Of a stretch of DNA of 64,000 bases, positions 1,414 to 13,634 are shown in pieces (positions within the stretch are counted from its first letter, which is position 1; each line of letters begins with the position of its first letter). A program made the position numbers and the translations under genes. The stretch is from Candidatus Staskawiczbacteria bacterium (GTDB lineage: Bacteria > Patescibacteriota > Minisyncoccia > Minisyncoccales > Staskawiczbacteraceae), in contig JAPLZC010000006.1 in assembly GCA_026395215.1 (NCBI GenBank), positions 8,081 through 72,080 on the forward strand. The letters are read 5' to 3'. The notes beneath the pieces are model-generated. The model worked only from the letters and a program-made list of their open reading frames with translations. It ran no database searches and was not told the DNA's origin.

Positions 1414-1554
1414 TTGACATATAATTCAAGATAGATTAAGATACAACTACAATTAATTAAAGCCATAGACAATGGGTCGCGAAAGCATAAATCCCATCGA
1501 GGCAACTCAACTAGTTTTATACTAGTTATTGCTGTCTGTGGAGACAGTTTTTTT
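1414..1554 (+). promoter_or_regulatory. rplJ promoter and structured leader with a terminator-like hairpin abutting the start codon (L10-leader-like)
   Basis: TTGACA 1414-1419, 17-nt spacer, TAAGAT 1437-1442. Stems atggg/cccat (1472-1497) and aactagt/actagtt. Hairpin ctgtct/agacag 1532-1547 followed by a T7 run 1548-1554 directly before ATG 1555. The position matches known L10(L12)4 autoregulatory leaders. Confidence 0.5.
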
Positions 1555-2049
1555 ATGGCACTAAATAAAGAACAGAAGACAAAGCAAATAGATAGTATTA
1601 AAGAAAGTGTTGCAAAACAAAAGTCGGTAATTTTTGTTGATTTTGCGAAGGTTCCTTCAAAGGAAATGTTTAGTTTGAGAAAATCTTTGAAAGAAGCTGG
1701 GTGTAAATTAAAAATTGCCAAGAAGACATTGGTTAGAATTGCTTTTGGGCAATCAAACATTTCATTTTGGAACAAAATGAAAGCAGTTATTCCTGGACAA
1801 TTAGCCTTGGTTTTTGGAATTGAAGATGATATAGCTCCAGCAAGAATTGCCAATCAGTTTTCAAAAACAAATGAAAATCTTAAGATTTTGGGAGGAATAT
1901 TTGAGAAGAGATTTATTGATAGAGAAAAGGTATTGGTATTAGCCAATTTACCTACAAGAAACGAGCTATTGGGCAGATTGGTCGGCTCTATATACAGCCC
2001 AGTGTCAAGCTTTGTAAGAGTATTAAATAAAATTAGCGAAAATAAATAA
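1555..2049 (+). CDS. rplJ: 50S ribosomal protein L10
   Basis: 164 aa, directly upstream of L7/L12. Typical L10 N-terminus (KEQKTKQIDSIKESVAKQKSVIFVDF). Confidence 0.9.
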   Translation: MALNKEQKTKQIDSIKESVAKQKSVIFVDFAKVPSKEMFSLRKSLKEAGCKLKIAKKTLVRIAFGQSNISFWNKMKAVIPGQLALVFGIEDDIAPARIANQFSKTNENLKILGGIFEKRFIDREKVLVLANLPTRNELLGRLVGSIYSPVSSFVRVLNKISENK

Positions 2050-2667: not shown

Positions 2668-3165
2668 ATGGCAACAACAAAACTGGCCAGCACGTTCACT
2701 GGGGTTCGGTACAACATTGGCGTGAGACTAGACCAACTTTTGTCGGTTGGAGACTATTTTCGAAAGGCGGGTCTCGCTGGTGATGACGAAAGGGATATTG
2801 TTGATACGTCCGGATGGAATATGAAGAACAAAACGGTAGGTGTTCGCGTTTTCGTTCCATCTGGCAATCACGGTGGAAGAAGTAATTACGAAATCTTCTG
2901 GGAGGAGATGGGCAAATTTGGTGTTACTAAAAAGAATATACGGCATGCTGAAGCAGTAACTCTACGTTGCCCGCCGGCGCCGGAACCGTGCACGGATGAT
3001 GGATATCTTGGGACTTGCTCCATATGTGGGGAAGAACACCCAGTGATTGGTCCTATTGGAGCAGAGAGGAAATTCCTTATGGGGCGTCATACTCCCCATG
3101 GTGATGATTCTAGCCTCTGTAGTGGCACTTCTGCGCTTCCCAATGGTGAAGTGCGGCGTAAATAA
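2668..3165 (+). CDS. hypothetical protein, GC-rich cassette a (165 aa, Cys-containing C-terminal half)
   Basis: ATG preceded by AAGGAGG at 7-nt spacing. GC-richer than its neighbours. Own terminator downstream. No family recognised. Confidence 0.6.
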   Translation: MATTKLASTFTGVRYNIGVRLDQLLSVGDYFRKAGLAGDDERDIVDTSGWNMKNKTVGVRVFVPSGNHGGRSNYEIFWEEMGKFGVTKKNIRHAEAVTLRCPPAPEPCTDDGYLGTCSICGEEHPVIGPIGAERKFLMGRHTPHGDDSSLCSGTSALPNGEVRRK

Positions 3166-3405: not shown

Positions 3406-3888
3406 GTGAGCAGGAACAGCAAGAAGGGTGATGTCCAAACAATGTCGTTAAGCCAAGGTGTGATGTTGGCGATCGACATGAACCGTGAAGCCTTGTTGAA
3501 GGTTAACGGTGGAATTCTGCACGGAATGCAGGTTAACATGGAGCTTGGCTCTGAGAGACCGGGTCGTTCGATTTTGGATCTGAGGAAGGATCCGTACTTC
3601 GACGCCGCGACCAAGGACGAGACCATACGGGTGATCACCTTCAACGGCTCAGCCATGGGCCGTAACGGATGGTTCCGTTTTACCAGCATCTGCATAATCA
3701 GTAATTTTGTGCAGAAGATGTGGGACCCGTGGTTCGTCGACGTCAAAATCGAAGACTCCGACAAACTCCGGTTCACATACGTCAGGGACCACGAAGGCTT
3801 GCCGGTTATGATTGACTGGCACGCGGTCTCAGACGATTACCCGCCTCTTTCGGAGGATACGGGCACTGAGGATGCGGACGAGGAGTAA
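3406..3888 (+). CDS. hypothetical protein, GC-rich cassette b (160 aa from GTG 3406; alternative ATG 3442)
   Basis: GGGAG lies 8 nt before GTG 3406, and GAAGGGTGA lies before ATG 3442. GC-rich coding composition with an acidic C-terminus. No family recognised. Confidence 0.55.
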   Translation: MSRNSKKGDVQTMSLSQGVMLAIDMNREALLKVNGGILHGMQVNMELGSERPGRSILDLRKDPYFDAATKDETIRVITFNGSAMGRNGWFRFTSICIISNFVQKMWDPWFVDVKIEDSDKLRFTYVRDHEGLPVMIDWHAVSDDYPPLSEDTGTEDADEE

Positions 3889-4084: not shown

Positions 4085-4342
4085 ATGTTTTACACTTACG
4101 CATTTTACGACAAAACTAGAGGAATATTTTATATCGGTTTTACTAATGATTTGAAACGCAGAGTTAAGGAACATCAATTAGGTAAAACTCAAACGACACA
4201 AAGAATGCCGGACAAATTATTAGTTTATTATGAAGCCTGTTTATCTAAGAAAGATGCAGAGGATAGAGAAAGACAATTAAAAACAGGATTTGGTAGGGGG
4301 TACCTAAAACGAAGATTGAAATATTATTTAGAGGGCACGTAG
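4085..4342 (+). CDS. GIY-YIG nuclease-domain protein (small UPF0213/YhbQ-like)
   Basis: The N-terminus FYTYAFYDKTRGIFYIGFTNDLKRRVKEHQ is a classic GIY-YIG block. Start taken at ATG 4085 rather than the GTG 4031 track start. The stop codon lies inside the first 10 nt of tRNA-Val. Confidence 0.75.
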   Translation: MFYTYAFYDKTRGIFYIGFTNDLKRRVKEHQLGKTQTTQRMPDKLLVYYEACLSKKDAEDRERQLKTGFGRGYLKRRLKYYLEGT

Positions 4343-5640: not shown

Positions 5641-8181
5641 ATGGATTTTTATTTTAAAAACACAAAGATTTTCTTAGCTTTAAAGAGGGCGCGATTTCCT
5701 TTATTTAGGTTCGCGGGATTTTTGAAAAATCTTTTTTTGGTTTTGTTTGTATTAGAAGCAATATTACTAGTGGTGGCGCAAAGCCATAATGCGGAAAAAA
5801 CGCTAATTTTATTTTTATTGTTGTATCTTGTCTTTTGGAATTTTGAGTTATTTTTGAGGTTGAAAATAAAAAGACCAAGCACTAATTTAAAAATTGAAGG
5901 TGCTGTTTTAAGCCCCAATGATTATAATCTGGCCGAGCTTTTAAGTTTTAATATGGCCACGGTTGTTTTAGAAGCAATAAATTTTTCTAAGAAAAAGAGA
6001 ATTCCAGTTAGTTCAACATCACTTCTTTATTCTGCGGTAAGGTATGGTAGAGATGTAAATCTAATTTGTTTGCGTTTAGGAATAAATCCTAAAAAATTGC
6101 AATCTGATATCAAAAATTATTTAGAAAAAACTGAGAAACATAATGTTACTGGGGAATTGTTTTCAGAAGATTTTAAAAAAGTAATAAGTAACGCGCTTAA
6201 ACTATCTGCGGATAGGGGACATAAATATATTGGGCAAAATGAGGTTTTGGTTGCTTTAGCCAAAGAAGATGATTTTTTTAAAAAAACACTGGTAGAGTTT
6301 GATCTCAAACCCGAAGATGTTGATAACTTAACATTATGGGTATCTTCGGCAGTAGATTTGGCAGATAGTAATAAAAAGTTTTGGACTTATGAAAATTTGG
6401 CGAGAAAAGGGTCGCTGGGTAAGAATTTTTCATCAGGATATACCATAACACTGGATAAATATGCAATTGATTGGAGAAAATATGTTTCGCAATGGAGGTT
6501 TACGGAAATTATTGGTCATGAAAAAGAAATAGACCAAGTTGAGGTAATTTTGGCAAAATCTAGTATGGCCAATGTGTTGATTGTGGGTGACGCGGGGGCA
6601 GATAGAAAAAGTATTGTTAAGGCAATAGCTCACAAATGTTATTTGGGAACAACTTTGCCCGAGTTAAACAACAAAAGGGTTGTGGAGCTAGATGTTGTTT
6701 CATTGGTTACCCAGATTTCTGATTTTGAAAAAGTAGAATATGTGCTAGGCCAGATTTTTTTGGAAGTTGCAATGTCAGGCTCTGTGATTTTAGTAATTGA
6801 TAACTTAGAAAACTTTGTGGGACAGAATGTGCAAAAAGCCGGCGCATTTGATATTTCAGGAGTGCTTTCAAAATATTTGCCTTTGCGTAACTTTCAGCTT
6901 GTTTGTTTGACTTCTCAAGATGGCTTGCACAAAAACATAGAAAAAGAGGCAGGGCTTGCTAATTCATTTGGGAAGGTTGAGGTTGTAGAAGTCACAGAAT
7001 TAGAAACAATAAATATTTTGCAATCAGTTGCTTTGGATTTGGAATACGTGCATAAGGTTTTGGTTTTGTATCCTTCTATTCGTGAGATTGTAAATTTGAC
7101 CGCGCGATATATGCCAAGTTTGCCTTTTCCTAAAAAGGCTTTAGATGTTTTGGAGGAATCAGTTGTCTACGTGCAAAAATTACGCGAAAAAATTGTTTTG
7201 CCCCACCACATAGCTGAAATTATTTCTAAAAAAACAGATATACCTGTTGGAAAAATGGAGGTAAAAGAAAAAGAGGTTTTGCTTAATTTGGAAAATTTAA
7301 TTCATAACAGAATTGTTAACCAAGAAGAAGCGGTTAGCCAAATATCTATTGCAATGAGGCGAGCCAGAATGGGAATTGCCTCAAAAACAAGGCCAATGGG
7401 AACATTTTTATTTTTGGGCCCAACGGGAGTGGGCAAGACTGAAACTGCAAAAGCTTTGGCCCAAATATATTTTGGATCTGAGAAAAAAATGATAAGGCTT
7501 GATATGTCAGAGTTTCAGGCAATTTCAGATATTCCAAGATTATTAGGAGCTACTTCTCCGGTTGAAATGCAAGGACTTTTAACAACACCTGTTAGAGAAG
7601 CACCGTTTTCTCTAATTTTGTTAGATGAAATAGAGAAAGCCCACCCTAATATTTTAAATTTGTTTTTGCAGGTTTTAGATGAAGGCCATATAACCGACGG
7701 GCAGGGCAGGAAAGTTGTTTTTGCAAATACAATTATAATTTGTACATCAAACGCCGGCGCCGATATGATTTTTAAGCAAGTAGAAGCTAGTCAAGCAGTT
7801 GAGAAAGATAAATTACTAAGTTCTCTCTTCGAAAAAAATATTTTCAGACCGGAATTTGTAAACCGTTTTGACGCTACTATAATTTTCCATCCTTTAACAA
7901 AAGACAACTTAATGAAAATTGCTCAGTTGTCTTTGCAGGGTTTACAAAAAGGTTTGAAGGAAAGGGATATAGATTTTATAATTACAGAATCACTCAAAGA
8001 AAGAATTGTAGAATTATCTTATAAGCCCGAGTTCGGCGCCAGAGAAATGCGAAGAGTTGTCCAAGATAAAGTGGAAAATGCGGTTGCCACAGCTCTTCTA
8101 TCTGATAAAATAAAAAAAGGAGATAAGTTTGAAATTAACCCAGAAAATTTTGAAATATTTATAAATCCCCCAAAGCCGTAA
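5641..8181 (+). CDS. Clp/Hsp100-family AAA+ ATPase, membrane-anchored, with a degenerate first nucleotide-binding domain
   Basis: NBD2 has Walker A GPTGVGKT, Walker B LILLDEIEKAH, TSNAG and FRPEFVNRFD. The N-terminus has two hydrophobic helices. The NBD1 P-loop reads GDAGADRKS and its Walker B reads VIDNLE. Confidence 0.8.
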   Translation: MDFYFKNTKIFLALKRARFPLFRFAGFLKNLFLVLFVLEAILLVVAQSHNAEKTLILFLLLYLVFWNFELFLRLKIKRPSTNLKIEGAVLSPNDYNLAELLSFNMATVVLEAINFSKKKRIPVSSTSLLYSAVRYGRDVNLICLRLGINPKKLQSDIKNYLEKTEKHNVTGELFSEDFKKVISNALKLSADRGHKYIGQNEVLVALAKEDDFFKKTLVEFDLKPEDVDNLTLWVSSAVDLADSNKKFWTYENLARKGSLGKNFSSGYTITLDKYAIDWRKYVSQWRFTEIIGHEKEIDQVEVILAKSSMANVLIVGDAGADRKSIVKAIAHKCYLGTTLPELNNKRVVELDVVSLVTQISDFEKVEYVLGQIFLEVAMSGSVILVIDNLENFVGQNVQKAGAFDISGVLSKYLPLRNFQLVCLTSQDGLHKNIEKEAGLANSFGKVEVVEVTELETINILQSVALDLEYVHKVLVLYPSIREIVNLTARYMPSLPFPKKALDVLEESVVYVQKLREKIVLPHHIAEIISKKTDIPVGKMEVKEKEVLLNLENLIHNRIVNQEEAVSQISIAMRRARMGIASKTRPMGTFLFLGPTGVGKTETAKALAQIYFGSEKKMIRLDMSEFQAISDIPRLLGATSPVEMQGLLTTPVREAPFSLILLDEIEKAHPNILNLFLQVLDEGHITDGQGRKVVFANTIIICTSNAGADMIFKQVEASQAVEKDKLLSSLFEKNIFRPEFVNRFDATIIFHPLTKDNLMKIAQLSLQGLQKGLKERDIDFIITESLKERIVELSYKPEFGAREMRRVVQDKVENAVATALLSDKIKKGDKFEINPENFEIFINPPKP

Positions 8182-8225: not shown

Positions 8226-8263
8226 AGTTATTGACAAATTCGTAAAATGCTATAAACTGGAGT

Positions 8264-8323
8264 GACAACTCTGGTCTTTGACATTTTACAGTTTTTATCT
8301 TTGCCCGCAAAGCAAAGAGCTGT
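8264..8323 (+). repeat. 60-nt shared 5' leader, copy 1 (upstream of the FucI-like gene)
   Basis: gacaactctggtctttgacattttacagtttttatctttgcccgcaaagcaaagagctgt is identical to 10157-10216 except for one A/G difference. It starts at the predicted +1 of a TGcTATAAA extended -10 (8248-8256). It contains the ctttgc-cc-gcaaag inverted repeat. Confidence 0.85.
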
Positions 8324-8359: not shown

Positions 8360-10015
8360 ATGAGTAGTTCAAAGTTATATCCGCCGATAGTATTCGGCGT
8401 GTTTGGTACATTCGATCCGCGACTGGATGGCGCTGGCCCTCAGGACCGCGAACGGTCGAACTTCATCGTGAAAATGACCGCGGCAATGATTGCGGATCAT
8501 GTGAAAATGCCGGACGGTAATCCGGTGAACGTGTTTGAACCAAAAACCTTGGTTGGTGGTGAAAGGGATGCTGACATTGTCGCCGGAATGTTCAAAGGTG
8601 CCGGCGTGCAAGTTCTTGTTTGCGTTTCCGACACCTGGGCATATCCCGGCAAGACCGCGATTGCACTGGCAAATCACTTCCCAAACGACATGCCCCTGCT
8701 TCTTCTCTGCGGTAACTCGGCGCCCAAACCGGGAGTGGTTTTTGACCACGCCTGCAGCGGTGCCTTTGCGCAGATGGGACGCAAGGCTTATCTCATTGTT
8801 GGTACCTGGGACGATGTTGGCCAGAAACCGGTGATGACCGTAGAGACCGCCAGCGAACTGATTTCCTGGTGCTACGGCATGTTGCCCAAAGCCGGCTGGA
8901 AGGGAAAGCGTCTGCTTTTCCACGGCGCTCATTCCATGGAAATGGAAACTGCGATGGCGCATGTCATTGCTACCCGGAATCAGTTCGGGGTGCATATTTC
9001 CATGAACGACATGACCGAAGTCTCCGACCGTCTCACCAAGCGAGAGTACAGCGATTCCGAGCTTTATAACCTTCGCAGATGGATGGACAGGATGCTCGGC
9101 AAACGCATTCAGATTCGGAATGTCGAAGATGAGGGAAAATTCCAGCAAGAGCTGGCTATGTACCTCATCACGCGTAACCTCATGAACGAGGTCAATGCAA
9201 TCGGCGGCGGGTTTATGTCTCAGCTCTCGTGGGGCTCGGACAAACGCATTTTGCCTCGGCCGGTTGCCGATGCAATGGAAAGTCTTCACAACAGTACATT
9301 TGACCATAACGGCCCCAAAACACCCAGGCCCTATGCAACGGAGTCAGACGCACAAGGCGGGTTGACAATGTTGCTGCAGTTCTGGATCTCCGGCGGTATG
9401 CCTCCGCTTTTCGCGGACTTCCGCAAGGTGTGGGAGGCCAATGATTTGGCTGATGTGGCCGCCAGTCTGAAAGTGGTACTCTCTGATGATGGGTGGGCCA
9501 AGCGAGGAATTGTTGATTACGACAACTCCGGTTCGGCCTCGTTCAACTGGGCTGGAAAACCCGGCATGACGGCCGAGGAATGCACGGCCAAGGTCTCAAT
9601 GCCTTTGGCTGATGAATTTTATTTTCCCGGCGGAGGTAACAGTGTGACATTCATGACTCCTGGCGACATTGACATGTTGACCGGCCGGCTCTGGTATGTT
9701 CAGTCCAAAGACAGGTGGGCGCTTACCTGGGACGACGCAGTTACCTGCGAACTTCCCGCTCCGCTGGCCAACAAACTCGCCAGTCTGTCTTCGCCTGGCT
9801 GGCCACACACATGGGTCATGTTTAAGAACTTTGAGCTGGCGCTGGTCAAGCACATTTCGCCCGCCAACCACTGGCACGCAGTCTGGAACACAGACCGCCG
9901 GCGGCTGATGTATGCCATGGATGCCTTGGGTATCCAGGACCTGCATGCTTCCAAGTTCCCAGCGTACACCCCCGGGCACGACATCCCGCCAACACTGCTT
10001 TCGCTGATCAAGTAG
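8360..10015 (+). CDS. L-fucose isomerase family protein (FucI-like aldose-ketose isomerase), GC-rich cassette c
   Basis: These blocks align with E. coli FucI as I recall it: NSTFDHNG..YATESDAQGG (NSSFDWNG..VATENDSLNG), FADFRKVW (FADVRTYW), DNSGSA (INSGSA), FPGGGNSVTF (FRGGGYSSRF), WPHTW (WPTTW) and ANH. GGGGAG lies 6 nt upstream of the ATG. Confidence 0.8.
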   Translation: MSSSKLYPPIVFGVFGTFDPRLDGAGPQDRERSNFIVKMTAAMIADHVKMPDGNPVNVFEPKTLVGGERDADIVAGMFKGAGVQVLVCVSDTWAYPGKTAIALANHFPNDMPLLLLCGNSAPKPGVVFDHACSGAFAQMGRKAYLIVGTWDDVGQKPVMTVETASELISWCYGMLPKAGWKGKRLLFHGAHSMEMETAMAHVIATRNQFGVHISMNDMTEVSDRLTKREYSDSELYNLRRWMDRMLGKRIQIRNVEDEGKFQQELAMYLITRNLMNEVNAIGGGFMSQLSWGSDKRILPRPVADAMESLHNSTFDHNGPKTPRPYATESDAQGGLTMLLQFWISGGMPPLFADFRKVWEANDLADVAASLKVVLSDDGWAKRGIVDYDNSGSASFNWAGKPGMTAEECTAKVSMPLADEFYFPGGGNSVTFMTPGDIDMLTGRLWYVQSKDRWALTWDDAVTCELPAPLANKLASLSSPGWPHTWVMFKNFELALVKHISPANHWHAVWNTDRRRLMYAMDALGIQDLHASKFPAYTPGHDIPPTLLSLIK

Positions 10016-10096: not shown

Positions 10097-10156
10097 CATA
10101 AAAACTATTGTGCGACAATTTGTTTGACAAAAGAGGAAAATAATGTAAAATAATAA

Positions 10157-10216
10157 GACAACTCTGGTCTTTGACATTTTACAGTTTTTATCTTTGCCCG
10201 CAAAGCAGAGAGCTGT
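10157..10216 (+). repeat. 60-nt shared 5' leader, copy 2 (upstream of the XylA-like gene)
   Basis: Same 60-mer as 8264-8323 with one substitution. Preceded by TTGACA 10124-10129, a 16-nt spacer and TAAAAT 10146-10151. Confidence 0.85.
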
Positions 10217-10252
10217 GTGGTATTTAGGCTAGAGAGAAAGAAGGCAGGAACA

Positions 10253-11386
10253 ATGAAGCGGCAAATGTTTAATCGTGGGCCAGTCACACAAAGGTCAATG
10301 CCTTTTTGGCCGTTGCAGTACCGCGGGACAGATCCTTTTGGCGGTCCGATTTTGGGCGCCATGGATTCATTGGAAACAGCCGATCTGCTGTGTTGGGCGG
10401 GAAAAGAAGGATTCATTGAACTAACCTCGGCCCATGATGATGACTTGGTGCCGTGGAATCCGAAGAGGCCGGAAGACGACCTGGATAAAAGCGGACTAGT
10501 CTACGGACGGCTTATGGAAATCCGTCAAAAACTCGACGCCGCCAACGTGGGTTTTCACATGGTTACCTGTTGTCTGCACGGAGACCCTATGTTCCGGCGC
10601 GGTGGGCTAACCAACCCCGATCCGAAAATTCGTGAACTGGCTAAGCTCAAAGTTCAGCGCACTTTGCGCATTGGCAGTATGCTCGGCGCCAAGCGGTTCA
10701 CCTACTGGGTGGCCCGCGACGGTTTCGAGGTGATGATCACTGTCGATCCGAAGGTGATGGACTGGTTGGCTGAAGGGTTGAATAGCGCAATCAGCTACAT
10801 GACTGAGGCCAGTCTGGACTACGATATGGCCACAATTGAACCCAAACCCAACGAACCGCGCGGACACATGTACCTGCCAACAGCAGGTCATGCCGCGGCC
10901 TTCACTCAAGCTCTCAACGAGCCAGGTTTCTGGAAAGTGAATCCGGAATTAACCCAGCACGAAGGTATGGCTGGGCTTGACCCGATTACTTGCATTCGCC
11001 TGCTCGTCAAGCTCGACAAATTGGGATTCCTACACTTCGGCAACCAGATTAACGGTCAGTTCGACAACGATTTTCCGCCGTTGGTTGGCCCGGAGCATCT
11101 CAAAGAAACAGCCGAGATGTTCCGCGTGCTTGAACAGCTCGGCTGGAAAGGTGTGGTTGAATATGACTGCCACGCATTGCGTTCTGAATTGAATCCGGAT
11201 GATTCGCTCGGATGCAAGAAGGACTTCATTGTAGACTGCACCATGGGCCTTTCCATCTCGCTCAAATTGGCGGAGCGGATTAAAAGCCTTGTGTTCGGCA
11301 TGCGCGAGAGCCAAGCTGATCTCAATTCGATTATGTTGCTTTGCAATCTTTCAGACGAAGATGTTAGTCATTACCTTGTTCGATAA
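10253..11386 (+). CDS. xylose isomerase-like TIM-barrel protein (divergent XylA family), GC-rich cassette d
   Basis: Blocks AHDDDL (XylA FHDxD), YWVARDGFE (FWGGREGYE), IEPKPNEP (EPKPxEP), NPELTQHEGMAGL (NIExNHAxLAGH) and FDNDFPP (WDTDQFP). Start taken at ATG 10253, with GAAGG upstream, rather than GTG 10217. Confidence 0.7.
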   Translation: MKRQMFNRGPVTQRSMPFWPLQYRGTDPFGGPILGAMDSLETADLLCWAGKEGFIELTSAHDDDLVPWNPKRPEDDLDKSGLVYGRLMEIRQKLDAANVGFHMVTCCLHGDPMFRRGGLTNPDPKIRELAKLKVQRTLRIGSMLGAKRFTYWVARDGFEVMITVDPKVMDWLAEGLNSAISYMTEASLDYDMATIEPKPNEPRGHMYLPTAGHAAAFTQALNEPGFWKVNPELTQHEGMAGLDPITCIRLLVKLDKLGFLHFGNQINGQFDNDFPPLVGPEHLKETAEMFRVLEQLGWKGVVEYDCHALRSELNPDDSLGCKKDFIVDCTMGLSISLKLAERIKSLVFGMRESQADLNSIMLLCNLSDEDVSHYLVR

Positions 11387-11413
11387 AAGCAGGAAAACAA
11401 ACATTTGAAATGG

Positions 11414-11443
11414 CCCCGAGTTAACAGCTCGGGGATTTTTTTT
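11414..11443 (+). terminator. rho-independent terminator after cassette d
   Basis: ccccgag/ctcgggg stem, 7-nt loop, T8 run. Confidence 0.85.
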
Positions 11444-11477
11444 ATGTCTATCCGTGGTAGACAGGCGACAGAGGGGC

Positions 11478-11637
11478 TTGACATAAAAGTGTAACGGAGT
11501 AATATAAAGCCATGAATAAAAACTTTGCCCTATTGTTAAGCTTGTTGTTATTGGACAAACAGTCTAGGGGGTTTTTGATAAAATAAACACAAAATAAAAT
11601 TACATATCAAAAAATCCTCCTAGAAAGAGGATTTTTC
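11478..11637 (+). promoter_or_regulatory. promoter plus a leaderless Leu-rich leader peptide and terminator/antiterminator (putative attenuator) of cassette e
   Basis: TTGACA 11478-11483, 16-nt spacer, TAATAT 11500-11505. ATG 11512 sits at the predicted +1. The 24-codon ORF 11512-11586 is MNKNFALLLSLLLLDKQSRGFLIK (8 Leu). Terminator hairpin atcctc/gaggat is at 11614-11632 followed by TTTT. The upstream ctaggggg (11564-11571) can pair with cctcctag (11616-11623). Confidence 0.45.
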
Positions 11638-11687
11638 AGTGTGTAATTTTGTCAGCACTTTCACAACTCAAAGAAAGGACGGATCCT

Positions 11688-11969
11688 ATGTCCATTGTCA
11701 CAACAAAAGAACTTACGCACAAATTCGTCGTTCCAACAACGCGCCACCCAGAGTACGGTTGGTTCTATGCTTTCGTTTTTAGCGTAGATCAAAACGAAAT
11801 CTGCAAACTACTTGCGTGGTGGAGTGCGAATATTTGTAGAGAGATTTGGGTGCCAGTGGGAACAATCGAGTCGTTCACGTTGTTTGATAATGATAAAGAG
11901 GCTAAAGCATGTTTAGAAGAAAGAAAATCGGCCTCATCCAATCCAAAAGGTTGTCGGCTTCGTTGCTGA
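11688..11969 (+). CDS. hypothetical protein, GC-rich cassette e (93 aa)
   Basis: ATG 11688 preceded by AAAGGA at 8-nt spacing. Own terminator. No family recognised. Confidence 0.55.
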   Translation: MSIVTTKELTHKFVVPTTRHPEYGWFYAFVFSVDQNEICKLLAWWSANICREIWVPVGTIESFTLFDNDKEAKACLEERKSASSNPKGCRLRC

Positions 11970-11986
11970 CAGCGTACTAGTCTTGT

Positions 11987-12012
11987 GCCTCACTTCGGTG
12001 GGGCTTTTTTTT
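11987..12012 (+). terminator. rho-independent terminator after cassette e
   Basis: gcctcac/gtggggc stem, TTCG loop, T8 run. Confidence 0.8.
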
Positions 12013-12084
12013 GCTTTGCCTCGCCGAAGCTTTTAGCGTAGGCGGGAGCTGTGCATAACTAAGGGTGTTGACTGGGTAGTGTGA

Positions 12085-12131
12085 AGTGGAGTATAAATAA
12101 GCTACAGTGGGTAAAAGTGGATAACAGTGGG
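12085..12131 (+). promoter_or_regulatory. MraZ-box-like direct repeats in the mraZ promoter/leader
   Basis: AGTGGA 12085, AGTGGG 12106, AGTGGA 12116 and AGTGGG 12126, the last three at exact 10-nt spacing. They overlap and lie downstream of TTGACT 12068-12073 / TATAAA 12092-12097. MraZ is known to bind GTGGG direct repeats in its own promoter. Confidence 0.6.
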
Positions 12132-12141
12132 ATAACTAATT

Positions 12142-12573
12142 ATGCTAATAGGACAATACGAACACACAATTGATATCAAAAAGCGCCTAGCCCTGCCTGC
12201 AAAATTTAGGGGGGAACTTGGTGATAAAGTAATTGTTACAAAAGGAATTGAATCTTGCTTGGTGGTTTATACTGAAAAAGAATTTAAAATAATGTCAGAT
12301 AAAATAAGTAATTTAACAATCAGCCAATCAGAAGCAAGAAGTTTTACCAGAACAATGCTAGCAGGAGCTATGGAAGTAAATTTTGATAAGCTTGGAAGAA
12401 TATTGGTTCCAGACTATTTAAAAAAATACGCTAATTTAAATAAAAATGTTGTTATTTGCGGATTGTCCAATAGACTAGAAATTTGGGATGCAGAAAATTG
12501 GAATGCTTGGACAAAGGAAGCTGAAAAAGGAGTAAGTGATATAGTCTCTAAGCTTGGAGGATTAGGTATATAA
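12142..12573 (+). CDS. mraZ: transcriptional regulator MraZ
   Basis: 143 aa with a duplicated SpoVT/AbrB-like DxxxR pattern (IDIKKRLALPAKFR, FDKLGRILVPDYL). First gene of the dcw cluster. Confidence 0.9.
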   Translation: MLIGQYEHTIDIKKRLALPAKFRGELGDKVIVTKGIESCLVVYTEKEFKIMSDKISNLTISQSEARSFTRTMLAGAMEVNFDKLGRILVPDYLKKYANLNKNVVICGLSNRLEIWDAENWNAWTKEAEKGVSDIVSKLGGLGI

Positions 12574-12658
12574 CATTAACGAATAACGAATCTATTACAA
12601 ATATACGAATTCGTAAATTTGTACGGAATTCGTAATTCGATGATAGAGCAAAGCGATT
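12574..12658 (+). repeat. intercistronic AT-rich word-palindrome element, family B copy 1 (mraZ-rsmH spacer)
   Basis: About 85% identical to 13547-13634. Arms are built from acgaat/attcgt words around the core tacgaattcgta 12604-12615. Ends gagcaaagcgatt directly before the ATG. Confidence 0.75.
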
Positions 12659-13546
12659 ATGATACATACAGCGGTTCTTAAAAAAGAAGTTCTTGAATAT
12701 TTAAACCCGCAACAAAATGAAAATTTTGTTGATTGCACAGTGGGCGAGGGAGGGCATTCTGAAGATATTTTAAATAAAAATGGGCCTGAAGGAAAAGTTT
12801 TGGGAATTGATTTAGACCCACAACAAATTGTGGCTAGCCAATGGTTGCATGTGCAGTTTAAAGAAAGGATAATTTTGGCTAACGATTCTTATATAAATGT
12901 AAGAGAAATTGCTGAAAGGAAAAATTTAGGCCAAGTTAACGGAATATTGTTGGATTTAGGAATGTCATCTGCACAGTTGGTTAGGGCACACAAAGGATTT
13001 TCATTTCAGGTAGATCAGGGTTTGGACATGAGATATAACGACGAGACAGGATATTTGACGGCAGAAAAAATAGTTAATGAATGGCCGGAAGAAAAAATTG
13101 CAGAAATTTTGGAAAATTACGGAGAAGAAAAATTTGCGAAAAAAATTGCCAAAAATATTGTTGAAGAAAGAAAAAAAGGAAGAATAAAAACAACATTCCA
13201 ACTTATAGAAATTATAAAGGACGCCACACCATCTGCATATTGGAGAGGGAAAATTCATTATGCTACCAGAACCTTCCAAGCCTTAAGAATTGCGGTCAAC
13301 GACGAGCTTGAAAGCATTAAGAGAGTTTTGCCAGAGGCAGTTTCACTTTTAGCGCCCGATGGAAGGCTTGTGGTTATATCATTTCATTCTTTAGAGGATA
13401 GAATTGTTAAGAACTTTTTTGCAGAGCAGGCAAAAAAGGGAGTATTAAAAATAATAACAAAAAAGCCTATAACAGCCAGCAGAGATGAACTTGGGAAAAA
13501 TCCCAGAGCCAGGTCTGCAAAACTGAGAGTGGCAGTAAAAATATAA
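12659..13546 (+). CDS. rsmH: 16S rRNA (cytosine1402-N4)-methyltransferase RsmH
   Basis: 295 aa with HTAVLKKEVLEYL, DCTVGEGGHS, ISFHSLEDRIVK and NPRARSAKLR blocks. Located in dcw context. Confidence 0.9.
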   Translation: MIHTAVLKKEVLEYLNPQQNENFVDCTVGEGGHSEDILNKNGPEGKVLGIDLDPQQIVASQWLHVQFKERIILANDSYINVREIAERKNLGQVNGILLDLGMSSAQLVRAHKGFSFQVDQGLDMRYNDETGYLTAEKIVNEWPEEKIAEILENYGEEKFAKKIAKNIVEERKKGRIKTTFQLIEIIKDATPSAYWRGKIHYATRTFQALRIAVNDELESIKRVLPEAVSLLAPDGRLVVISFHSLEDRIVKNFFAEQAKKGVLKIITKKPITASRDELGKNPRARSAKLRVAVKI

Positions 13547-13634
13547 ACCATCAACGAATAACGAATCCAATACGAATATACGAATTCGTAAATTCGTAAC
13601 TAAATTCGTAATTCGATGATGGAGCAAAGCGATT
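13547..13634 (+). repeat. intercistronic AT-rich word-palindrome element, family B copy 2 (rsmH-ftsL spacer)
   Basis: Paralog of 12574-12658. Core tacgaattcgta at 13579-13590. Confidence 0.75.

Follow-up and report, generated by a model that had tools for sequence, protein, structure and literature searches.

RESULTS

A short Leu-rich reading frame, a terminator and a competing helix precede an orphan gene upstream of mraZ.

The window, by which we mean the whole 64,000-nucleotide (nt) stretch of DNA analyzed (contig JAPLZC010000006.1, positions 8,081 to 72,080 of the forward strand), comes from the low-GC genome (~0.36 GC) of a Candidatus Staskawiczbacteria bacterium, and its RsmH is 79 to 87% identical to the RsmH proteins of metagenome-assembled genomes (MAGs) labelled Candidatus Staskawiczbacteria. 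Between a clpB-like gene and mraZ it carries a candidate transcription attenuator, which a sequence-only reading had described as a Leu-rich leader peptide with a mutually exclusive terminator and antiterminator in front of a small open reading frame (ORF). The features of this element are listed below in window coordinates, with RNA pairings as predicted.

11478..11505, + strand: sigma-70-type promoter, TTGACA (11478-11483), 16-nt spacer, TAATAT (11500-11505); 10 of 12 positions match the consensus
11512..11586, + strand: 24-codon leader ORF, MNKNFALLLSLLLLDKQSRGFLIK, lacking a Shine-Dalgarno (SD) sequence
11530..11553, + strand: putative regulatory codons CTA TTG TTA AGC TTG TTG TTA TTG, 7 Leu in 8 positions
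11531..11545, + strand: region 1, Leu codons pairing with region 2 (anti-antiterminator) in the minimum free energy (MFE) structure; family consensus helix of 12 pairs
11563..11580, + strand: region 2, UCUAGGGGGUUUUUGAUA, pairing with region 1 or region 3 and ending 3 nt ahead of the leader stop
11605..11624, + strand: region 3, UAUCAAAAAAUCCUCCUAGA, 5' arm and loop of the terminator, pairing with region 2
11627..11636, + strand: region 4 and U-tract, GAGGAUUUUU, forming an intrinsic terminator with 11610-11619
11601..11645, + strand: extension of the terminator stem, UACAUAU/GUGUGUA, 11601-11607 with 11639-11645; window specific, not conserved in the family
11653..11666, + strand: conserved motif CAGCACTTTCACAA/CAGCACWTTCACAA (the CAGCAC motif), between the terminator and the SD sequence of the cargo gene
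11675..11969, + strand: cargo, with the SD sequence AAGGA (11675-11679) 8 nt ahead of the ATG and a 93-amino-acid (aa) ORF (11688-11969)

The promoter hexamers with their 16-nt spacer, the leader ORF with seven Leu codons within 11530-11553, and the SD-led ATG at 11688 all lie where the sequence-only reading had placed them. The same is true of its terminator-like hairpin (core atcctc/gaggat, 11614-11632), whose T's run on to 11636 and whose stem extends over 11610-11636. A Leu run of this density is exceptional in the window, where a single one of the 1728 open frames of at least 20 codons (six frames) contains at least 7 Leu in 8 codons, and that frame is the leader ORF. We also found a Logan contig from SRR20698641 that is identical to window positions 11596-13631; the leader DNA and its junction with mraZ are therefore real. 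This contig (L001), the sole public contig with the exact DNA, starts at 11596, in the A-rich spacer of the leader, and low coverage or strain variation upstream could be the cause.

The leader RNA is predicted to switch between two exclusive structures.

The RNA from 11512 to 11700 folds with a free energy of -44.8 kcal/mol (z = -3.2). The unconstrained MFE structure of the window combines a helix between regions 1 and 2 (1:2; 12 bp) with a helix between regions 3 and 4 (3:4; 10 bp), and the segment that pairs with region 2 in it is 11518-11537. Region 2 has a second potential partner in region 3, since 11563-11580 can pair with 11605-11624 over 17 to 18 bp, arranged as 9 + 9 around a 2-nt bulge (2:3, the candidate antiterminator). 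None of 2000 dinucleotide shuffles of the upstream segment paired as well as this duplex (-21.8 kcal/mol, versus -8.4 ± 2.3 kcal/mol in the shuffles), and its energy was unmatched by 1415 other stretches of the window. The sequence-only reading had recognized 8 bp of complementarity, one of them G-U, between ctaggggg (11564-11571) and cctcctag (11616-11623); that complementarity is real, but the actual helix is the longer one of 17 to 18 bp.

The terminator hairpin, whose free energy that reading had left to be computed alongside that of the antiterminator, comes to -9.7 kcal/mol. Its stem takes in the A-run and the U-run (11610-11619 with 11627-11636), and it has 5 U. A consensus terminator scan did not list this 11610-11636 hairpin, probably due to the T-run being absorbed into the stem. 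With the window-specific extension, the stem reaches -16.7 kcal/mol (z = -5.7). Since the extension contains G-U pairs, it belongs to the RNA of the + strand only, which likewise makes a DNA palindrome or bidirectional terminator unlikely.

When the nascent RNA was folded stepwise, the MFE structure switched to 2:3 (17 bp) while the 3' end lay at 11623-11632. After region 4 and the U-tract had been made, the optimum reverted to the terminator combined with pairing of the Leu-codon segment to region 2. Simulated ribosomes decided between the two outcomes in the window: a mask on the Leu run gave 2:3 (17 bp) and no 3:4, whereas a mask at the stop codon gave 3:4 and no 2:3. Because the Leu codons themselves pair with region 2, the predicted folds correspond to the classic 1:2/2:3/3:4 layout of a four-region attenuator.

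Homologous leaders occur at 31 loci.

A word-based search with the 93-aa protein gave no homologue, so rsmH was used as an anchor, and sibling loci (numbered with an L below) were reached through RsmH synteny, one metagenome pattern scan, and homologues of the cargo. The resulting set, drawn from Candidatus Staskawiczbacteria MAGs and from metagenomes, holds 31 homologous leaders plus one truncated copy in L008. Three sibling loci (L006, L011, and L012) are 72 to 76% identical in nucleotides to window positions 11483-11644 and share with the window the promoter, the hairpins, and a short ORF rich in Leu. The metagenome scan, with a pattern built from regions 2 and 3, returned 67 loci that included 20 distinct true leaders; about two thirds of the 67 matches were chance occurrences inside unrelated genes, without a Leu run or terminator, and were discarded. 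Divergent leader copies in L003, L004, and L008 were recovered with a hidden Markov model (HMM) of the alignment, and four further leaders that are independent of the pattern came by way of cargo homologues (L099/L100, L101/L102, L103/L104, and L105). A search of the window with nhmmer found the one leader and no second copy.

At loci with flanking DNA, the leader is bounded by the clpB-like gene and mraZ, with the sole exception of L038, L074, and L077. In these three, the leader and a cargo of the KFVVP/GWW family (L038, ~6440-6930) lie between an FKBP-like gene and a membrane-protein gene, and an XseA-like gene is also found upstream (neighbor annotations made by eye from translations). Given this second genomic context, the unit of leader and cargo appears to have been either moved or duplicated in some lineage.

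A perfect TTGACA lies 16 to 17 nt ahead of a -10-like hexamer in 26 of the 31 leaders. In the window, 6 nt (AAAGCC) separate TAATAT from the ATG at 11512, and the leader ORF is probably leaderless, its ATG being 6 nt past the -10 hexamer. The corresponding spacing is 6 to 8 nt in 8 of the 31 leaders, including the window's, and 9 to 19 nt in most others, and no SD sequence precedes the leader ATG in any of the 31 family members. Since this spacing is short and the SD sequence is lacking across the family, a leaderless or very short unstructured 5' end appears to be a family trait. The sequence-only reading had called such a start unusual, but it has a precedent: a passage in PMC4046766, citing Morbach 2000, reports that Corynebacterium leader peptides are made without a ribosome-binding site. 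As a separate observation, the leader promoter and the start of the ORF in L049 and L072 are enclosed between the arms of an inverted repeat (CCCCGTTAGAR ... YTCTAACGGGG). A similar repeat is found in L004 (9340-9475), as a ~130-nt insertion flanked by GTTGAC in the mraZ promoter region. Judged by its sequence, the repeat looks like a miniature mobile element.

The Leu codons and the position of the stop are conserved, and the rest of the peptide is not.

Homologous leader ORFs of 24 to 54 codons are present at all 31 loci. The core LLL(S/N)LLLL occurs in every leader, and in 27 leaders compared codon by codon the synonymous changes draw on TTG, TTA, CTA, CTT, CTC, and CTG. Even codon-family switches that alter two bases (TTG to CTT, CTC, or CTA) retain Leu, which argues that selection acts on the decoding of Leu. 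The remainder of the peptide shows no conservation at the protein level: the conserved region 2 RNA, GGAGGUUUUUGAUAA, is read in three frames (..RGFLIK*, ..QEVFDK*, and ..PGGF*). The window stop codon occupies 11584-11586, and in every leader the stop codon ends between -3 and +14 nt relative to the end of region 2. Because this position is kept, a terminating ribosome would always cover region 2. Separately, the leaders of L032, L085, and L091 carry an extra segment of ~27 codons (..HPVKYREAVIS..AKLFN..) between an N-terminal NKN motif and the Leu run; the segment holds two small hairpins and lengthens the peptide to 44 to 54 codons, leaving the attenuator undisturbed.

The pairing of regions 2 and 3 is maintained by compensatory changes.

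Within the alignment, 89.5% of the cells of the 2:3 helix are paired, compared with 38 to 59% when the partners are slid by 1 to 3 columns. Five pairs of this helix have changed on both sides, a number reached in 2 of 500 shuffles. An alignment-free comparison gave the same picture, with a summed energy of -631.5 kcal/mol for cognate region 2/region 3 duplexes versus -573.8 ± 9.9 kcal/mol when region 2 was permuted among sequences (0 of 5000 permutations). Compensations can also be read directly in the raw sequences: GAUG/CAUC in L003, GGUA/UACC in L101, CUGAGAGG/CCUCUCGG in L099, and GGAGGUUUUC/GAAAACCUCC, without the bulge, in L103. Both the conserved Leu run and the compensatory changes that the sequence-only reading had proposed to look for in sibling genomes were found in the leaders of the family.

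The consensus terminator has 9 pairs and is followed by 5 to 9 T across 25 relatives, with a compensation of A-U to G-C in L038/L077. The consensus 1:2 helix joins the Leu codons to GGAGGUUUUUGAUA through 12 pairs, in which changes are mostly from A-U to G-U, a pattern that fits a UUA/UUG wobble tolerated by both decoding and pairing. When the predicted switch was examined in 25 leaders, 24 folded 2:3 before region 4 was made, 23 formed the 3:4 terminator with a ribosome at the stop, and ~20 formed 2:3 with a simulated ribosome on the Leu run. The exceptions to the last of these arose because the stall mask of the script was misplaced where an extra Leu codon precedes region 2.

The slot behind the leader holds leuA in five relatives and small orphan ORFs elsewhere.

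The cargo is leuA in 5 of the 31 loci (L003, L006, L009, L011, and L044) and a small orphan ORF in the other 26, including the window. The cargo proteins of L006, L011, and L044 are 2-isopropylmalate synthases (NCBIfam NF002991, 777 to 805 bits versus a cutoff of 455), and the LeuA proteins of L006 and L011 also reach the cutoff of TIGR00970, the long "leuA_yeast" type; the cargo of L003 was read as leuA-like from the sequence and that of L009 was found by tblastn. Of all leaders, that of L044 is the closest to the leader of the window. Since leuA is the expected target of a Leu attenuator, its presence is the strongest functional argument for the attenuator model. The leuA genes lie at the following positions of their own contigs.

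L006, 7663-9324: leuA
L011, 7635-9287: leuA
L044, 4937-6604: leuA

The slot LeuA proteins of L006, L011, and L044 are 51 to 59% identical, and the flanking ClpB, MraZ, and RsmH proteins are 75 to 90% identical; leuA in the slot may either have evolved fast or itself have been exchanged. No other leu genes were seen beside leuA in the 20-kb loci, as far as these were inspected.

The 26 non-leuA cargoes are single ORFs of 67 to 130 aa that fall into at least 5 unrelated families (zinc-ribbon-like, receiver-like, and others). The leader is thus followed by a slot that leuA occupies in five relatives and other genes occupy in the rest. The sequence-only reading had regarded a Leu-sensing attenuator before a gene of unknown function as unusual, an oddity explained by the leuA found in this slot in relatives.

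The 93-aa ORF of the window belongs to the commonest orphan family, which is present at no fewer than 11 loci (consensus MCExRDGKFVVP..MGWWIGQ..VLWV..EFD..EA) and whose members are all annotated as hypothetical. Its protein has no Pfam domain, and neither an exact-sequence look-up nor a single-sequence word-based search of 5.8 billion proteins returned a record. HMMER against 1.84 billion representatives gave three weak matches, with E values of 9e-6 to 1e-4; among the three, P0003 (92 aa) truly belongs to the family. An AlphaFold model (predicted local distance difference test score [pLDDT] of 79) shows a small beta-barrel with a C-terminal helix. This model had no match in the PDB at E ≤ 0.001 (the best was 0.077, with a template modeling [TM] score of ~0.4), and its top sub-significant matches were small barrels of the SH3, Sm, L14e, and Tudor-like kinds.

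The leader has a host-like GC content of 0.32, and the cargo is richer in GC (0.43). Between the terminator and the cargo SD sequence, CAGCACWTTCACAA has the same position in L009, L054, and L093 and is present with variation in nearly all other loci, whatever the cargo; the window holds a single exact copy of the CAGCAC motif. In many relatives a long hairpin, variable in sequence, comes ahead of the motif, and the window lacks this second hairpin. Promoter, leader peptide, terminator/antiterminator, and CAGCAC motif are kept across the family, and the coding sequence behind them appears to have been exchanged (leuA and at least 5 families).

Genes and units around the leader.

The leader unit is the last of several GC-richer units upstream of mraZ, each made up of a terminator, a TTGACA promoter, a 5' untranslated region (5' UTR), an ORF, and a terminator. 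Other features of the window are as follows.

1445..1562: Rfam L10_leader, 47.3 bits versus a gathering score of 44, upstream of a 164-aa ORF (1555-2049)
5641..8181: clpB-like gene
8360..10015: fucose-isomerase-like gene, GC 0.55, in a cassette upstream of the leader
10217..11386: xylose-isomerase-like TIM-barrel gene, GC 0.52, in the cassette immediately before the leader
11414..11442, + strand: intrinsic terminator of the preceding cassette, 9-pair stem with 6 G-C, then ATTTTTTTT
11987..12012, + strand: terminator closing the cargo unit, followed by the mraZ promoter (TTGACT, ~12070)
12142..12573: mraZ, in the division and cell-wall cluster
12659..13546: rsmH, in the same cluster, with a penicillin-binding protein gene downstream

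The terminator at 11414..11442 would, judging by its sequence, isolate the leader promoter from upstream transcription. The two isomerase cassettes are additional units that the window carries between the clpB-like gene and the leader. They share a repeat comprising the promoter and a ~60-nt 5' UTR (8231-8323 and 10124-10216; 85% identity over 93 nt), within which lies the hairpin CTTTGCCCGCAAAG. Most sibling loci lack both cassettes and have the clpB-like gene directly next to the leader; in L043, a FucI-like gene also precedes the leader. An exact-sequence look-up with the protein of cassette d found no record.

The mraZ promoter reads TTGACT-N17-TATAAA and is followed by GTGGG/GTGGATAA boxes ~10 nt apart (~12070-12135), which resemble MraZ operator repeats and DnaA boxes. 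This region is conserved in the alignment of L003-L012, L044, and L093, and upstream of the boxes there is a conserved block, GTGCATAAC..TATTGTGCGACAAAA..CTGTGGATAACT, that is partly missing in the window. Near the other end of the window, the ORF at 2148-2543 resembles ribosomal protein L7/L12, judged from its translation alone. It is followed, ahead of a tRNA-Val at 4333, by two GC-richer orphan ORFs (2668-3165 and 3406-3888) that had no Pfam match.

DISCUSSION

A probable leader-peptide attenuator that would sense charged tRNA-Leu.

From the sequence comparisons and predicted folds, we consider it very probable that the element is a classical ribosome-mediated leader-peptide transcription attenuator sensing charged tRNA-Leu. 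It has a start-proximal short ORF, conserved Leu codons, a terminator, an antiterminator exclusive with it, and a fitting geometry of region 1 and the stop. As for a gene of the pathway, the cargo is leuA in the five relatives and a 93-aa orphan in the window. The stall-versus-stop scheme of the sequence-only reading thus finds support in the masked folding, in the conservation of the leader, and in the leuA genes of five siblings.

Transcription would start at or just upstream of the ATG at 11512, and a ribosome would translate the 24-codon leader. With Leu-tRNA plentiful, this ribosome would reach the stop at 11584-11586 and cover region 2 (11563-11580); with region 2 covered, 3:4 pairing would form the terminator (11610-11636), and RNA polymerase would halt at ~11637. 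With Leu-tRNA scarce, the ribosome would stall on the seven Leu codons of 11530-11553, that is, on region 1, and leave region 2 free. Free region 2 would then pair with newly made region 3, and the resulting antiterminator of 17 to 18 bp would block the terminator and allow read-through into the SD-led 93-aa ORF (11688-11969). If the leader were not translated at all, 1:2 and 3:4 would both form and lead to termination. The start of transcription, actual termination, and the response to leucine are what we infer from these features.

Several points weigh against this interpretation. The model presupposes coupling of transcription and translation in these bacteria, itself a supposition. The cores of the 2:3 and 3:4 helices are nearly invariant, in the 20 metagenome leaders partly because the search pattern required those bases, such that a minority of sequences and positions carries the covariation; moreover, the shuffle and permutation controls ignore relatedness. 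In some loci without leuA, the Leu run is slightly degraded (5 to 6 of 8). The window terminator is weaker than the family norm, having a GAGGA arm, an energy of -9.7 versus ~-13 kcal/mol, and only 5 U. Finally, the gene behind the window leader lies outside the leucine pathway, and the 64-kb window contains no detectable leuA: a tblastn search of it with LeuA for a remnant gave nothing better than E = 2.

We regard as improbable an alternative in which the attenuator evolved for leuA and is here an intact leftover after leuA was replaced; it may then still terminate transcription, but leucine-dependent control of the 93-aa ORF would have no adaptive role. This is consistent with the presence of leuA in 5 of the 31 loci, among them the one whose leader is closest to the window's, with the weaker terminator of the window, and with the absence from the window of the second hairpin of many relatives. 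It also fits the distribution of the Leu run, which has 7 of 8 Leu in all five leuA-linked leaders but in only 13 of the 26 leaders without leuA (P = 0.058 by Fisher's test and 0.025 by the Mann-Whitney test; phylogeny ignored in both), so that the constraint on the leader may be somewhat relaxed, although not lost, where leuA is absent. However, all 26 non-leuA leaders retain the promoter, the ORF, the Leu run (at least 5 of 8), the stop position, the terminator, and the antiterminator. They do so despite ~25% divergence of the leader and identities of 16 to 28% within one cargo family, and the unit of leader and small cargo is found in a second genomic context. Cargo proteins are also poor in Leu, as LeuA is (6.9% versus 9.4% in host proteins, P = 0.0013; LeuA, 6.7 to 7.0%), although this difference is confounded by their higher GC and composition; a Leu-poor cargo would suit expression in Leu shortage. 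Because the leaders are intact at the 26 non-leuA loci and occur in a second genomic context, continued function of the leader at loci without leuA is the favored reading.

We think it very improbable that the leader is instead a translation-independent riboregulator, binding a protein, tRNA, or small molecule in the manner of a T-box or LEU element, in which the Leu codons are kept for pairing. The Leu codons are indeed part of the 1:2 helix, with changes mostly from A-U to G-U; codon mutations in Streptomyces leuA/ilvB defied the predictions of classical attenuation (PMC1262725); and the conserved motif downstream (11653-11666) is unexplained. Yet the two-base switches from TTG to CTT, CTC, or CTA keep Leu, and all 31 leaders conserve the ORF with its start and the placement of the stop with respect to region 2. 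In addition, the element matches neither the T-box nor any other leader family in Rfam, and its spacer has no conserved unpaired core for a ligand pocket. Least credible is a functional small hydrophobic peptide (a type I toxin or membrane peptide) with its own terminator and an incidental alternative pairing, which the hydrophobic core FALLLSLLLL followed by charged residues and the small-protein-gene look of promoter, small ORF, and hairpin might suggest, since the hydrophobic stretch is only ~10 residues, a Pfam search with the peptide found nothing, conservation ends outside the Leu run, the C terminus is read in three frames over region 2, lengths vary from 24 to 54 codons with inserts, and the 2:3 complementarity covaries and is far beyond chance.

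If the element is an attenuator, a broader reading is that it forms a promoter-containing leucine-starvation module ahead of a hypervariable single-gene slot, with tRNA-Leu charging serving as a nutritional or host signal for accessory small proteins; this we put forward tentatively, as a possibility that we are inclined to doubt. The swapping of the cargo is the less expected part of the finding. Should selection maintain the swaps, amino acid attenuators would be reusable as general starvation-responsive switches, and the orphan proteins would gain a testable condition of expression, leucine limitation. Staskawiczbacteria are uncultured, reduced-genome, and probably host-dependent bacteria, and a conserved Leu attenuator would imply that they couple transcription with translation, that they translate SD-less or leaderless ORFs, and that some of them regulate a gene of leucine biosynthesis. 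The 31 leaders also provide a ready seed for a covariance model with which to annotate genomes of the Candidate Phyla Radiation (CPR).

Comparison with known attenuators and leader elements.

Most known cases of classical leader-peptide attenuation come from Proteobacteria, Actinobacteria, and some Firmicutes. A scan of the window at Rfam gathering thresholds listed just 3 tRNAs and the L10 leader. An E-value scan of 11400-11720 gave sub-threshold matches at chance level (e.g., Phe_leader, 16.8 to 20.4 bits versus 55), and neither RF00512 (Leu_leader) nor the T-box was listed even at E up to 10. A full-text literature search found no papers joining CPR or Patescibacteria with attenuation or leader peptides. 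Given that there was no Rfam match and no such paper, the leaders appear to make up a so far undescribed family within a known kind of attenuator.

The organization is like that of the leu attenuator of Escherichia coli and Salmonella (leuL, RF00512), which also has a short promoter-proximal ORF with a Leu run, 1:2/2:3/3:4 pairing, and a terminator before the gene, and whose first controlled gene is leuA, as in our five relatives. The enterobacterial leader has four mostly rare CUA Leu codons. The Staskawiczbacteria element, found in Patescibacteria, differs from RF00512 in having no sequence or structure match to it, seven Leu codons from several codon families, no SD sequence, and probably a leaderless start; unlike the enterobacterial operon, it has only one ORF under its control, and this ORF varies from genome to genome. 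With the Leu T-box of Bacillus ilv-leu, it would share a choice between terminator and antiterminator made by tRNA-Leu charging. T-boxes are untranslated leaders of ~200 nt or more that bind tRNA. A T-box is excluded here by the lack of an Rfam match; the element is ~125 nt long and has a translated-type ORF.

Its mechanism would be that of the enterobacterial leu attenuator and of ribosome-mediated attenuation in general (PMC1183508). In Corynebacterium glutamicum, the leuA leader peptide has four consecutive Leu codons, the ilvB leader peptide lacks a ribosome-binding site, and leaderless small ORFs are described (PMC4046766). Of the leuA, ilvBNC, and trp leaders of that organism, the first resembles ours in its Leu run and the second in its lack of a ribosome-binding site, and LeuA is of the same long "leuA_yeast" type (TIGR00970). 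In the Staskawiczbacteria element, compared by description, the Leu run is longer, the antiterminator is much longer, and the cargo is swappable. The actinobacterial LEU element also has an upstream ORF with a Leu run before a long-type leuA and Leu codons involved in RNA pairing. It folds as a pseudoknot with a base stem formed by the Leu run and the leuA SD sequence, and it has no obvious terminator (PMC1262725). We rejected this candidate, as the Leu run here pairs with region 2 and not with the SD sequence, the leader has a canonical terminator, and the SD sequence of the cargo lies ~40 nt beyond the terminator, outside every conserved helix. In Staphylococcus aureus, ilv-leu is preceded by a conserved Leu-rich leader peptide and a terminator/antiterminator that respond to Leu depletion (PMC5794164). 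That peptide has a ribosome-binding site and mixed Ile and Leu codons, in contrast to the SD-less Leu run of the Staskawiczbacteria leader. Furthermore, the S. aureus terminator lies 52 nt past the stop and the antiterminator pairs with the poly-U tail, whereas in the Staskawiczbacteria leader the stop abuts region 2 and the antiterminator is predicted to pair with the 5' arm of the terminator.

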